From IMG/VR virus record IMGVR_UViG_3300021399_000161, positions 2,449 to 66,448 of that record: a stretch of DNA of 64,000 bases. One strand, written 5' to 3'. This document shows positions 18,088-45,049 of this stretch, one piece after another. This DNA comes from a virus. The first letter of the stretch is position 1; every line of letters starts with the position of its first letter. Under the pieces are notes generated by a model. It did no database searches. It had not been told where the DNA came from and saw nothing but the letters and a program-made list of their open reading frames with translations. Both the position numbers and the translations under genes were made by a program.

Positions 18088-18273
18088 TGAAAAAACAGAA
18101 ACACATTATCTAGTGATTGAGAGACTGGGAGATGCAACCCGGTCTCTTTCTCTATACGAGTCAGAGAAGACTCCCAAAAACACGACAGCAACAAAAACAA
18201 AATCAATCGTCAGAGAAGACGTAAAAACACACCAAACGGTCAGAGAAGACCTGAAAACACAGGAGGACACAAA

Positions 18274-18804
18274 ATGGCAGAAGAGACACGCACTGAGCAG
18301 ACGCAGGAACCCGCAGAGCAGAAGACCGAACAGGAGATTCCCGAGGTTACGATGGAGTCCCTGAGTGCTGACAACGCAAAGCTGAAGGCGGAAATCGCCA
18401 AACAGAAACTTGCGCTGGACAAGGCGCTTCACAACAACGGTGAACTGACCAAGCAGCTCCGGGCGAAGATGTCCGCTTCCGAGCAGGAGGCAGAAGCTAA
18501 GAGAGAGGCCGAAGAAGCCCAGGCGAACCGCATCAAGGAACTTGAGGATTACAAGCGCCGGTCCGAGGCAAGAGAGAGGTACATGGCTACCATCGGTATG
18601 TCTGCGGATCTGGCGAAAGAAGCGGCTGAAGCAGAAGTATCTGGAGACATGGATGCTCTGGCGTCTGTGTACAAGAGACATCAGGAAGCCGCCATCAGAG
18701 CGAGTGAGGCTGAGTGGCTGAAGAAGCGTCCGATGCCGGAGACCAGCCGGGAGGAGCAGGCGGCAAAAGAGGATCCGTTTCTCAAGGGCTTCAATCAGGG
18801 CTGA
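18274..18804 (+). CDS. scaffolding protein
   Basis: Coiled-coil E/K/A-rich 176-aa protein between the head morphogenesis and capsid genes. Confidence 0.6.
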   Translation: MAEETRTEQTQEPAEQKTEQEIPEVTMESLSADNAKLKAEIAKQKLALDKALHNNGELTKQLRAKMSASEQEAEAKREAEEAQANRIKELEDYKRRSEARERYMATIGMSADLAKEAAEAEVSGDMDALASVYKRHQEAAIRASEAEWLKKRPMPETSREEQAAKEDPFLKGFNQG

Positions 18805-18859
18805 CACATAAGACAGTAGAGTGCCATTGAGCGCCGTAGATGATAAGGAGGACCACAAA

Positions 18860-19228
18860 ATGGCACTTGGTATGAACTATGCCGAGAAGTATTCCCCGAT
18901 AGTAGACGAGCGCTTCGCACTCGGTTCCCTGACCGGCGGAATGGTAAACAACGAGTATGAGTGGATCGGTGTACAGACGGTAAACGTGTACTCGATCCCG
19001 ACGGCGGCTATGAACAACTATAGCCTGACCGGCATGAGCAGATACGGCACTCCTGCTGAACTTCAGAATGACGTTCAGGAGATGACCGTATCCATGGATC
19101 GCTCTTTCACCTTCACAATCGACCGCAAGAACCATGATGACACCATGATGGTCATGGAAGCTGGCCGTGCTCTCCGCAGACAGATCGATGAGGTTGTTAT
19201 ACCTAGACAGAATTGGGTCGCTGCGTAG
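18860..19228 (+). CDS. major capsid protein, N-terminal segment (putative exon 1)
   Basis: Strong RBS AAGGAGG; capsid position; ends in tandem stops TAGTAA immediately before the HEG insertion. Confidence 0.5.
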   Translation: MALGMNYAEKYSPIVDERFALGSLTGGMVNNEYEWIGVQTVNVYSIPTAAMNNYSLTGMSRYGTPAELQNDVQEMTVSMDRSFTFTIDRKNHDDTMMVMEAGRALRRQIDEVVIPRQNWVAA

Positions 19229-20048
19229 TAATACGCATACGAAAACTTGCTTAATTGCTGGAAACTCTCCTGTTTGATAGGTTGCAGGAGACAATCAGCA
19301 GCCAAACTGAATAACGTAATTATGACCACTTAATTGGAGGACAGATATGGAAGAATGGAAAGCTGTAGTTGGGTATGAAGGCTTCTATGAGGTTTCATCT
19401 TACGGAAGAATAAGAAGTATTGATAGATATGTTAAGACTGGGATTCTTCACAGTGAAGCGAAACTTCAAAAGGGGAAGTTATTAAAACTCAACAGGAAAC
19501 GCAGTGGATATCTTTCAGTGGATCTCTGCAAAGAAAACAAGATAAAAACGATGTCCGTGCATAGAATTGTGGCGCTGGCGTTTATAAAAAAGCCGGAAGG
19601 CAAAGACGTCGTAAACCACATCAATCTAGATAAGACCGATAATCGCGTAAAGAATCTTGAATGGGTTACTTGCAGAGAAAACACACAACACGCCGCTAAA
19701 AACGGAGTGATTTATGGTGGCTTGAGAAAGTTAGTCAGGTGTTGCGAGACTGGAGATACTTTTTCAAGCAGTTACAAAGCCGCTGAATGGTTGAATAAGA
19801 CAAAATTCCATTATTCAAAACAAATTGATTCAATGGGTAAAAACATTCGTGCTTGTTGTCAGGGTAAACGCCCTACAGCATACGGATATCATTGGAAAGA
19901 CGTTATTCAGGAAGGTTCAACGACTAGTCCGTGAGGACGTACACCCAAGTGGGTGGAAATGGCAGGCTCCACGTAAAGTGGATGAAGATATAGTCTTATC
20001 TATGCAGAAATGCATAGCAGTTAATAACGGGCATGGAGATAACGAACC
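19229..20048 (+). mobile_element. HNH homing-endonuclease-containing insertion splitting the capsid gene (candidate group I intron)
   Basis: Non-coding 118 nt and 114 nt flanks around the HEG ORF; flanking capsid segments are in different frames. Confidence 0.45.
19347..19934 (+). CDS. HNH homing endonuclease (NUMOD4 + HNH_3)
   Basis: WKAVVGYEGFYEVSSYGRIRS (NUMOD4) and HINLDKTDNRVKNLEWVTCRENTQH (HNH_3) motifs. Confidence 0.85.
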   Translation: MEEWKAVVGYEGFYEVSSYGRIRSIDRYVKTGILHSEAKLQKGKLLKLNRKRSGYLSVDLCKENKIKTMSVHRIVALAFIKKPEGKDVVNHINLDKTDNRVKNLEWVTCRENTQHAAKNGVIYGGLRKLVRCCETGDTFSSSYKAAEWLNKTKFHYSKQIDSMGKNIRACCQGKRPTAYGYHWKDVIQEGSTTSP

Positions 20049-20555
20049 ATGCTGAAAAAAATGGAGATTGACACCTATCGTATCGCAGCTCTCGTATCTG
20101 GTGCTGTCTCTGCGCAGGTTCATGACGCCGCAGCGGCCAGTGCGACCAACGCCTACGAACTGTTCCTTGCCGGTCAGGAAGATCTTGACAATGCGAAGGT
20201 CCCGCAGGGTGGCCGTTTCGCCATTGTAACCCCGAAGTTCCTCAACTACGTCAAGCTGAGCGATAACTTCATCAAAAAGGGTGACATGGCGCAGCAGATC
20301 GCAATCACTGGTGTGGTTGGCGAGATTGATGGCGTGTATATCATCAAGGCTCCTACCAGCTACTTCCCGACGAAGGTTCAGTGCATCATCACGAACCGGA
20401 TGGTAATGCCGTCCCCGGTTAAACTTCAGGACTACAAGATCCATCAGGATCCGCCCGGAGTGAATGGGTGGCTCGTCGAGGGGCGCATCAGATACGATGC
20501 CTTCATTCTGAACGAGAAGAAGACAGCCATCTCGGTGATCGCAAACCCTTCGTAA
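20049..20555 (+). CDS. major capsid protein, C-terminal segment (putative exon 2)
   Basis: 168 aa in the capsid position; alone it is too small for a capsid protein; weak RBS GGAGA. Confidence 0.5.
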   Translation: MLKKMEIDTYRIAALVSGAVSAQVHDAAAASATNAYELFLAGQEDLDNAKVPQGGRFAIVTPKFLNYVKLSDNFIKKGDMAQQIAITGVVGEIDGVYIIKAPTSYFPTKVQCIITNRMVMPSPVKLQDYKIHQDPPGVNGWLVEGRIRYDAFILNEKKTAISVIANPS

Positions 20556-20941
20556 GTACTACCACGGTATCGCCCGAAGATGGTAGTACGGAAATCTGGG
20601 GCTACTCTATAAGCGACCTTCAGTCTGATGTTGAGATTGATGACGGTGCGATTACTGGCACGTTGTCCTATATCGACACTGGAACTCTTGCCGATGAATG
20701 GGGAGCGGGTAACTTTATCGCACTGAAATTTACGTTGCCTGAAGGAGCAACGCCAGATACCGTCAGGGTTGGCATGGACCCGTCTGTGAGTTCCGGTCTT
20801 CTTCCTCTGGATGAAGATTTGAACGCTATCTGCAAGGTGACCGACAAGGATGGACAGAATTTTGTTGTGGAAACATGGACGGGAGGCTACTGGCACAGGG
20901 ATGTATACGACCTGTCAGGGCTGACGGTTCTGGATGAATAA
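20423..20941 (+). CDS. -1 frame extension open across the capsid stop (possible frameshift-added C-terminal domain)
   Basis: The -1 frame is open from 20423 to 20941 with no ATG start; A_AAC_CCT heptamer lies 2 codons before the TAA; the GTG at 20468 is an alternative independent start. Confidence 0.3.
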   Translation, partial: TSGLQDPSGSARSEWVARRGAHQIRCLHSEREEDSHLGDRKPFVSTTTVSPEDGSTEIWGYSISDLQSDVEIDDGAITGTLSYIDTGTLADEWGAGNFIALKFTLPEGATPDTVRVGMDPSVSSGLLPLDEDLNAICKVTDKDGQNFVVETWTGGYWHRDVYDLSGLTVLDE

Positions 20942-20954
20942 GGAGAGTTATTTT

Positions 20955-21131
20955 ATGATAACCCTTGAAAGAGATGGCAAGAGAATGGAGGTCGCAACTG
21001 AGTTGCAGGCCTCCGTCATGGAGCGGAGCGGTTACACACGGGTGGAGCCGGAGAAACCCGTATCTCCCGAGTCACCCAAGAGCGCGCCGCCGAAACGCAG
21101 ACGGCCCGTGAAGACCGAAGAGGCGGAGTAG
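20955..21131 (+). CDS. hypothetical small protein (basic C-terminal tail)
   Basis: RBS AAGGAGAG before ATG. Confidence 0.4.
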   Translation: MITLERDGKRMEVATELQASVMERSGYTRVEPEKPVSPESPKSAPPKRRRPVKTEEAE

Positions 21132-21159
21132 GCAGCAATCTACACACGAGGTATGTGAT

Positions 21160-21501
21160 ATGGAGACAGAGATCCTGACAGCGGTACAGACGTACTTGGA
21201 ATATACAGGGGAGACCGTGACTGAAGAATTTCTGTCTCTGATCATTGCCTCTGTGATAGAGAATTACAAACAGCAAAGATGTTATCCGGACAGCATGGAC
21301 GAGGAAGCCATCGATGCCGATGTTGAAAAATACTTCACCAACAAAAAGACCTATGTGGCCACACAGGTCATTCCGGCCATCCTTGGGAAGGTCGGCGGTG
21401 AAGGTCTGACATCCATCATCGACAACCAGACTTCCAGGTACTGGAAGACGGACTTCCCTGTCTACTTGCCTGATGTGGTTCCGTATTGCGAGGTGGTCTG
21501 A
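21160..21501 (+). CDS. head-tail connector (gp6-like)
   Basis: TAVQTYLEYTGETVTEEFLSLIIASVIENYKQQRCYP resembles Phage_connect_1 family proteins. Confidence 0.55.
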   Translation: METEILTAVQTYLEYTGETVTEEFLSLIIASVIENYKQQRCYPDSMDEEAIDADVEKYFTNKKTYVATQVIPAILGKVGGEGLTSIIDNQTSRYWKTDFPVYLPDVVPYCEVV

Positions 21502-44647: not shown

Positions 44648-45049
44648 TGCTCATATCCTTTCTGATCCAAAACAGAACACTCAGCCCTGCCCCTGCACTG
44701 CACACGTTGCATGATGGGGCAGGAGAACATGGTGCATATCTTTATTACGCCCTCAAAATCATCGGCACGAATATAATCAATAGATACGGTTTGCTTTTTC
44801 CCTGTCTTCTTGCAGATGCCGGTTTCCGAAATCACTTTGCATTTCCTCCCAAATAAAAACCCGGTAACCATAAGGCTACCGGGTGTCTCTCATAGAAAGT
44901 CTCAGGATGGGCGGCGTATCCATCATCTCAGGTACCTTTTTGTCGGTGCGTCGGGAGCCTTTCCGACCTCTGAGACTTATCGGTAGCTTCAATATACTAA
45001 ATGTTTACTGCTCGGTCAAGGCAACGCCACTGTTGACATCATCCCCGTT

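Follow-up and report, generated by a model that had tools for sequence, protein, structure and literature searches.

A predicted group I intron with an HNH endonuclease gene in the major capsid gene of a probable rumen phage and its diverged relatives

Introduction

Group I introns that carry HNH endonuclease genes are already known from phage structural genes, capsid genes among them. The capsid gene of mycobacteriophage LittleE is interrupted by an HNH-carrying intron of 819 base pairs (bp), whose splicing was shown by reverse transcription PCR and N-terminal sequencing (Pope et al. 2013, PMC3706429), and an intron is found in the major-head-protein gene of lactococcal phage Tuc2009 (cited in PMC3706429; listed in PMC2504315). 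Here we describe a comparable locus in a stretch of 64,000 nucleotides (nt), hereafter the window, that comprises positions 2,449 to 66,448 of the viral record IMGVR_UViG_3300021399_000161. In the window, two short open reading frames (ORFs) at the place of the major capsid gene flank an HNH endonuclease gene. Sample and assembly names suggest rumen or gut metagenomes, and the phage is probably a rumen phage. As in LittleE and Tuc2009, a major capsid gene is split by an intron of about 0.8 kilobases (kb) with an HNH gene, exon 1 ends with U, the intron ends with G, and the predicted product is colinear with intron-less homologues. However, the capsid family and the hosts are unrelated. In LittleE, moreover, the endonuclease lies on the opposite strand and the intron type was given as 'most likely group I' without a defined fold, whereas in the window the endonuclease lies on the same strand inside the loop of helix P6a, the fold is backed by covariation and splicing is predicted. 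A literature search returned no paper on the intron family of the window or on capsid introns of rumen phages; what is new is a multi-member family, which extends a known phenomenon.

The introns of the T4 genes td, nrdB and nrdD (sunY), which belong to subgroup IA2, have a core with the hairpins P7.1 and P7.2 between P7 and the 3′ strand of P3, and their ORFs are looped out of a peripheral stem. The window intron shares both traits, and the J6/7-P7 sequence GUUCAACGACUA and the J8/7-P7 sequence GAUAUAGUC (P, paired helix; J, joining segment) are conserved between them. The T4 introns reside in nucleotide-metabolism genes and encode GIY-YIG enzymes (I-TevI, I-TevII) or another type of HNH enzyme, whereas the window intron resides in a structural gene and encodes a NUMOD4/HNH_3 enzyme. 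This enzyme resembles I-HmuI, the product of the group I intron in Bacillus phage SPO1's DNA polymerase gene (PDB 1U3E): both are encoded by a phage group I intron and combine an N-terminal NUMOD4 region with an HNH core. The C-terminal 70 residues of the window enzyme do not match I-HmuI, and the target gene differs. I-HmuI is named as a nicking enzyme in the title of Landthaler et al. 2004 (cited in PMC3706429). Finally, gp210 of phage PhiPA3 is an intron-encoded HNH endonuclease that targets a sequence in a related co-infecting phage and prevents the assembly of its progeny (Birkholz et al. 2024, PMC11620839). PhiPA3 is a jumbo phage and the target of gp210 is PhiKZ gp178; the likeness to the window endonuclease is one of functional analogy.

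Results

The two short reading frames as parts of one capsid gene

A first-pass annotation of the window had described a 122-residue ORF with a strong ribosome-binding site and tandem stop codons, an ORF for a NUMOD4/HNH_3 homing endonuclease and a 168-residue ORF, and sequence reading and Pfam searches found all of them in that arrangement. The 122-residue ORF (18860..19228) ends with TAG (19226-28), directly followed by TAA (19229-31). These tandem stops are separated by 118 nt from the endonuclease ORF (19347..19934, 195 residues), and 114 nt lie between the end of the latter and the 168-residue ORF (20049..20555). The first and the last of these ORFs, those of the capsid, do not share a reading frame (18860 mod 3 = 2; 20049 mod 3 = 0). 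The parts of the capsid gene are as follows.

18843..18849, plus strand: ribosome-binding site AAGGAGG of the capsid gene, 10 nt upstream of the ATG at 18860 (sequence reading)
18860..19204, plus strand: capsid exon 1, 115 codons ending with ...DEVVIP, phase 0 (PHROG 422, homologue alignment)
20064..20555, plus strand: capsid exon 2, 163 codons plus stop, starting with EIDTYRIAAL (PHROG 422, homologue alignment)

Both ORFs matched consecutive parts of PHROG 422 'major head protein' (297 positions), the exon 1 ORF at profile positions 4-114 with an expect value (E) of 1e-22 and the exon 2 ORF at positions 114-293 (E 7e-33). Conceptual joining of the exons gave a product of 278 residues, the same length as its closest homologues. 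The joined protein had more than 6,000 homologues, the best of them with 276-279 residues, 82-83% identity and 100% query coverage. The size of about 290 residues that the first-pass annotation had given for the two ORFs together was somewhat too high for the spliced protein. Tblastn aligned 95-98% of the query with the annotated major head or capsid genes of Thermus phage phiOH2, Bacillus phage TP21-L and Clostridium phage XP41-N3 at 41-53% identity, and PDB entry 8E16, 'major capsid protein gp6', matched the spliced protein with E 1.6e-5. Local Pfam and NCBIfam scans of the spliced protein yielded nothing above cutoff, and the identification as a capsid protein therefore rests on PHROGs, tblastn and PDB; the homologues carry Pfam PF25209.

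The alignment of the joined protein with 11 uninterrupted homologues located the junction. All of them read ...QIDEVVIP/EIDTYRIAAL..., where the slash marks the junction, with the general form IP/E(I, V or L)DTYR, and proline 115, which closes the exon 1 block, was invariant in every uninterrupted homologue aligned. The last seven codons of the first ORF (RQNWVAA) and the first five of the second (MLKKM) had no counterpart in these homologues. Because the true boundaries are 19204/19205 and 20063/20064, these codons are intron sequence, and the exon ends that the first-pass annotation had placed at the ORF ends, with the tandem stops right after exon 1, had to be moved. At the corrected junction the joined reading, ...GTT ATA CCT + GAG ATT GAC..., is in frame; the spliced RNA is predicted to read GTTATACCT joined to GAGATTGAC and its product to contain the junction-spanning peptide ...QIDEVVIPEIDTYR.... 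A 3′ splice site at G20051 or G20054, which the in-frame TAA at 20040 had suggested, was ruled out by the homologue alignment, which sets the junction between G20063 and G20064. The homologues show one gene and not two separately conserved genes. By sequence comparison, then, both short ORFs are halves of one major capsid gene, which is neither broken nor two-piece. Upstream of it lie terminase, SPP1-type portal, Mu-F-like and scaffold-like genes and downstream of it head-tail genes. When 18200-21200 was scanned for promoters and terminators, neither strand showed any above chance level, and minus-strand ORFs across the capsid and intron region were without support.

The first-pass annotation had offered as its alternative that a free-standing HNH endonuclease gene was inserted and that the capsid consists of two separately translated polypeptides of 122 and 168 residues that co-assemble without splicing. 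In its favour, T4-like phages are known to have genes interrupted by free-standing endonuclease genes, each of the two capsid pieces is an ORF with a start codon, and the introns of the family described below all have ATG or TTG at their 3′ end, in the reading frame of exon 2, which formally allows for an internal start. However, no Shine-Dalgarno sequence precedes ATG 20049 or ATG 20061, the two terminal peptides would be parts of the pieces without counterpart in the homologues, and the codon for Pro115 is fixed as CCU only in intron-plus alleles. A mere insertion would also not need the complete group I core that surrounds the endonuclease gene, with its Rfam matches and 36 covarying pairs. 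We consider a two-piece capsid very unlikely. Still less probable, to the point of being negligible, is that the insert is an intein or a group II intron, for which nothing speaks beyond the interruption of the gene itself. The different exon frames and the intervening stop codons exclude an intein, as the first-pass annotation had rightly argued from the frames; there is no reverse transcriptase or maturase ORF, and among Rfam intron families only the group I family RF00028 matched, with no group II domains at E up to 10.

Structure of the intron

The sequence between the two exons can be folded into a group I ribozyme whose P6a loop holds the endonuclease gene. Its elements are listed here from 5′ to 3′.

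19205..20063, plus strand: group I intron, IA2-type, 859 nt (RF00028, homologue-fixed junction, covariation in nine copies, blastn)
19201..19218, plus strand: P1, formed by exon/intron sequence ACCU/AG (19201-06) with the internal guide sequence UUGGGU (19213-18) (RF00028 alignment, covariation)
19222..19237, plus strand: P2 hairpin UGCGU/ACGCA (structure reading; three of five pairs vary on both sides, 100% paired)
19246..19303, plus strand: P3 5′ strand (19246-51), P4 (19256-61 with 19295-300), P5 (19266-72 with 19285-91) and P6 5′ strand GCC (19301-03) (RF00028 model positions 1-119)
19307..19317, plus strand: P6a 5′ arm CUGAAUAACGU (perfect 11-bp complement to 19900-19910)
19900..19916, plus strand: P6a 3′ arm (19900-10) and P6 3′ strand GGU (19914-16) (structure reading, covariation, RF00028)
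19922..19995, plus strand: 3′ core with P7 5′ strand (19922-26), P7.1 (19927-38), P7.2 (19942-55), P3 3′ strand (19961-66), P8 (19968-82), J8/7 (19983-90) and P7 3′ strand (19991-95) (RF00028 model positions 118-253)
20000..20063, plus strand: P9 (20000-17, GAAA loop), P9.1 (20031-36 with 20047-52) and the 3′ tail to the terminal G20063 (structure reading, covariation)

Run on the window, RF00028 gave a match of 40.6 bits over 19783-20017 (E 1.8e-8) and another of 20.9 bits over 19195-19392 (E 0.015). Taken alone, the 5′ half (19195-19322) covered model positions 1-119 at 34.4 bits (E 1e-7) and the 3′ half (19896-20017) positions 118-253 at 42.3 bits (E 5.6e-10), so that the two matches tile the whole model from 1 to 253. 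All core helices from P3 to P9 were located in both domains (P4-P6 and P3-P7-P8-P9), including the P3/P7 pseudoknot, and the motif ATATAGTCTTATC lies at 19988-20000. The perfect 11-bp stem of P6a closes a loop of 582 nt that holds the endonuclease gene. The flanks of this gene, which the first-pass annotation had taken for non-coding sequence, make up the ribozyme core together with the last 35 nt of the endonuclease ORF. The wobble pair U19204.G19215 in P1 marks the 5′ splice site and coincides exactly with the junction defined by the homologues, so that the insertion point in the aligned protein corresponds to the U.G splice site on one side and the terminal G on the other. The tandem stops TAG TAA fall on nucleotides 22-27 of the intron, partly in the P2 stem end and partly in the loop. 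The GC content is 40.7% in the intron, about 40% in the endonuclease gene and 52-54% in the exons.

In the Michel-Westhof classification, the hairpins P7.1 and P7.2 between the P7 5′ strand and the P3 3′ strand are the signature of IA2 introns. Both hairpins can be drawn in the window, where this stretch forms an insertion in the RF00028 alignment at that place, and on this sequence criterion the intron is of the IA2 structural type. Blastn of 18800-20600 against a phage genome collection gave DNA-level matches solely at 19897-20063. The matched sequences were introns already known from td, nrd and DNA polymerase genes, and one record carried the annotation Intron_gpI. The segment 19919-20063 aligned to the td gene region of Pectobacterium phage POP12, and the match stopped at 20063, the 3′ splice site. 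We conclude, with high confidence and on sequence evidence, that the capsid gene carries a functional group I intron with splice sites at 19204/19205 and 20063/20064, as the first-pass annotation had proposed in outline.

Nine related introns at one codon boundary

Endonuclease relatives of 57-78% identity were all found in the same slot, in the order portal, Mu-F, scaffold, short ORF, endonuclease and longer ORF. Nine distinct introns (857-868 nt), including that of the window, shared one codon boundary in the capsid gene, as determined by tblastn and direct reading, and RF00028 matched in all eight relatives at 30-43 bits. Exon identities to the window capsid were 54-79% in most loci where tblastn aligned; they were lower in locus L051, and the capsid exons of locus L053 gave no tblastn match to the window capsid at E 1e-5. 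The nine introns were aligned with the endonuclease loop cut out, and pairing was tested against the proposed structure. Standard pairs occupied 98.0% of the 662 pair cells, compared with 33-42% when the partners were slid by 1-3 columns. Compensatory changes on both sides were observed in 36 of the 74 pairs, and none of 500 shuffles reached any of the observed pairing measures.

The individual helices behaved as follows. The P1 wobble pair was UG in all nine copies, and the exon-guide pair adjoining it covaried (AU in four copies, CG in three, GC and UA in one each), so the guide sequence tracks synonymous exon changes. P3, P4 and P5 were 98-100% paired, with two, one and six covarying pairs respectively; P7.1, P7.2 and P8 were fully paired with three covarying pairs each; and covariation reached six of seven pairs in P9 and all four in P9.1. 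P6a also covaried, to the extent that in L053 it consists of an unrelated but complementary 12-mer. P6, P7 and J8/7 were invariant, and the P9 loop was of the GNRA type and the terminal nucleotide a G in all nine copies. The codon for Pro115 was CCT in nine of nine intron-plus alleles and CCT, CCG or CCC in intron-minus alleles, in line with a ribozyme that requires U at the splice site. Some copies had peculiarities of their own: L053 (3866-4722), one of the most divergent, has a longer P1 loop besides its wholly different P6a sequence, in L049 (3871-4738) and L048 an additional hairpin separates P9 from P9.1, and exon 2 of L051 starts with alanine in place of the otherwise conserved glutamate.

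These data bear on the possibility that the insert is a decayed, non-splicing intron or an assembly artefact, and the capsid gene a pseudogene in a defective phage or part of a chimeric contig. The metagenomic source and a full-length Rfam score under the gathering cutoff would be in keeping with it. However, five contigs, assembled independently of one another and drawn from several samples, had the split gene with an identical endonuclease; they include an ENA scaffold of 65.8 kb and the assembly GCA_001684375.1, and an assembly artefact is therefore ruled out. The 98% paired core and the invariance of P7, J8/7 and the terminal G across nine diverged copies indicate that selection still acts on the ribozyme. 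All copies examined had an intact endonuclease ORF and two intact exons, and a phage without a major capsid protein does not propagate. Decay or artefact thus seems highly improbable to us, and a working intron remains the explanation that we favour.

Searches for further copies had the following outcome. Exact 20- to 25-mers of the intron had no match in IMG/VR. The sequence GACAATCAGCAGCCAA was discarded as a marker of the family, since more than 120 unrelated viral contigs matched it, among which only L085 has a split capsid gene; it appears to be a widespread group I core motif. A pattern combining the P7 3′ strand with the start of exon 2 returned only the same phage and one relative of the L050 type. 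Locus L179 was dismissed as a chance match, having no capsid, endonuclease or Rfam match.

The endonuclease gene

The gene in the P6a loop has its own translation signal, and the GGAG core of this signal was conserved upstream of the ATG in all relatives.

19336..19340, plus strand: ribosome-binding site GGAGG of the endonuclease gene, 6 nt before the ATG (sequence reading)
19347..19934, plus strand: homing-endonuclease gene, 195 residues, NUMOD4 + HNH_3, I-HmuI-like, in the P6a loop (Pfam, PHROG, PDB)

The protein scored 63.3 bits against Pfam NUMOD4 (cutoff 23.4, E 2.4e-17) and 36.2 bits against HNH_3 (cutoff 24.8, E 4.6e-9), and a PHROG of HNH endonucleases matched with E 5e-44. The closest solved structure was that of I-HmuI (E 2.5e-12 over residues 3-122). 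Residues N90, H91, N99, N103, N112 and H115 were invariant in 16 endonuclease relatives, down to 43% identity, and H91 aligned with the histidine of the VVDH motif of I-HmuI; by this analogy, the six are candidate catalytic residues of the HNH domain. No separate promoter or terminator stood out for the endonuclease gene in the scans of 18200-21200.

The 3′ end of the gene overlaps the ribozyme. The last 35 nt of the ORF (19900-19934) run through the P6a 3′ arm, the P6 3′ strand, J6/7 and the P7 5′ strand, and the stop codon falls in the P7.1 loop. Conservation of the C-terminal peptide 'QEGSTT' is imposed by the RNA of the ribozyme core. In the relatives (L041-L054) the stop lies earlier or later, in different core elements, giving proteins of 186-210 residues. 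Ribosomes that translate the endonuclease would have to unfold the catalytic core.

Distribution of the intron

All 36 capsid relatives that were retrieved from IMG/VR by protein similarity were uninterrupted; the intron-less junction sequence, for example in L005 or L007, is CAGATCGATGAAGTAATTATCCCTGAAATTGATACCTAC. The nearest relatives of the window capsid (about 84% identity) have no intron, and the intron-plus alleles are more distant. In a neighbour-joining tree of the capsid proteins, built without support values, intron-plus alleles were interleaved with intron-minus alleles. Endonuclease identity did not track capsid identity: it was 76% in L045, with a capsid identity of about 56%, and 70% in L048, with a capsid identity of about 75%. 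This patchy distribution fits an intron that homes into a conserved site and is repeatedly gained and lost; it may also stem from vertical inheritance in which the intron was often lost.

The 3′ end of the capsid gene and another RNA in the window

The capsid gene ends with GCA AAC CCT TCG TAA, in which A_AAC_CCT (20543-49), two codons before the stop and read in the capsid frame, has the form of a slippery heptamer for -1 frameshifting. No stop interrupts the -1 frame over 132 codons as far as 20941; this frame has no credible start codon and matches phrog_31690, and the gene callers leave 20556-20773 empty. After a spacer of 6 nt, the heptamer is followed by a 9-bp stem (20556-64 with 20581-89) with a free energy of -19.1 kcal/mol and a z-score of -2.3. 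In the intron-less relatives L014, L020, L021 and L022, ACCCTTCGTAA is retained, the stem covaries and the -1 extension has a homologue (55-79% identity from its first residues); other relatives carry instead an in-frame Big_2 C-terminal domain. A programmed -1 frameshift (20543-20941, plus strand) likely yields a longer form of the capsid protein, and its predicted product carries ...VIANPFVSTTTV....

At 44898-44977 on the minus strand, a skipping-rope RNA (RF02924) scored 72.3 bits, where the gathering score is 36.7. No other Rfam family in the window was above threshold.

Discussion

Taken together, the position and phase of the junction, the covariation of the fold and the nature of the endonuclease suggest the following course of events. 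The late structural transcript would comprise exon 1, intron and exon 2, and the intron RNA would fold into the P1-P9.1 ribozyme. An external guanosine would attack after U19204, which is held in P1 by its U.G wobble with the internal guide sequence, and the freed 3′-OH of exon 1 would then attack after the terminal G20063, ligating the exons into an mRNA from which the 278-residue capsid protein is made. On unspliced RNA, ribosomes would terminate early, at the tandem stops in P2. By analogy with I-HmuI, the endonuclease would introduce a nick or a cut near IP/EIDTYR when a co-infecting relative carries a capsid allele without the intron, and that allele would acquire the intron as it is repaired from the intron-plus copy.

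Several points weigh against this interpretation. No RF00028 match reached the gathering score of 50 bits, the best full-length match being 40.6 bits, so that the Rfam search called for in the first-pass annotation was positive for both flanks (E 1.8e-8 and 0.015) but fell short of the family threshold; we attribute the shortfall to the inserted ORF of about 590 nt, and adding up the scores of the two halves is no formal test. A putative P10 would comprise 2-3 bp at most. We took the structure tested in the nine copies from the window itself and made the alignment ourselves with the loop excised, which inflates the share of paired cells, though the numbers of compensatory changes in the eight other introns are unaffected. 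The capsid tree lacks support values. Endonuclease-free copies of the intron were sought in IMG/VR and in a JGI metagenome set with a gapped pattern (P6a arms 2-32 nt apart) and none was found, so no copy could be scored whole. Lastly, we infer splicing, the activity and target of the endonuclease, and homing from established group I intron chemistry and from I-HmuI.

The endonuclease may have a role beyond homing. One site has been kept across wide capsid divergence, the endonuclease gene is intact in all copies that were examined and no endonuclease-free copy was found, a pattern unlike the cycle of gain, decay and loss of a purely selfish element. We raise for this reason, as a speculation that is probably wrong, that the endonuclease may persist as an interference weapon that disables the capsid gene of co-infecting intron-less relatives, in the manner of PhiPA3 gp210 but with the structural gene of highest expression as its target, and that production of the complete set of capsid products may require both splicing and the -1 frameshift.

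Public gene calls on L001-L004 and L041-L055 give the split capsid as two unnamed proteins with no or weak Pfam match. Because gene callers yield two 'hypothetical proteins', capsid-based classification and marker surveys of rumen and gut phages miss or truncate such a capsid, and recognising the intron restores a normal capsid protein of 278 residues. With at least nine diverged introns at one site, the family lends itself to comparative study of an IA2 ribozyme that carries an I-HmuI-like endonuclease. Each virion requires hundreds of copies of the capsid protein, so splicing must be efficient, and the locus offers a test case for how a phage tolerates an intron in its most highly expressed late gene and for the role of endonucleases in competition between phages.

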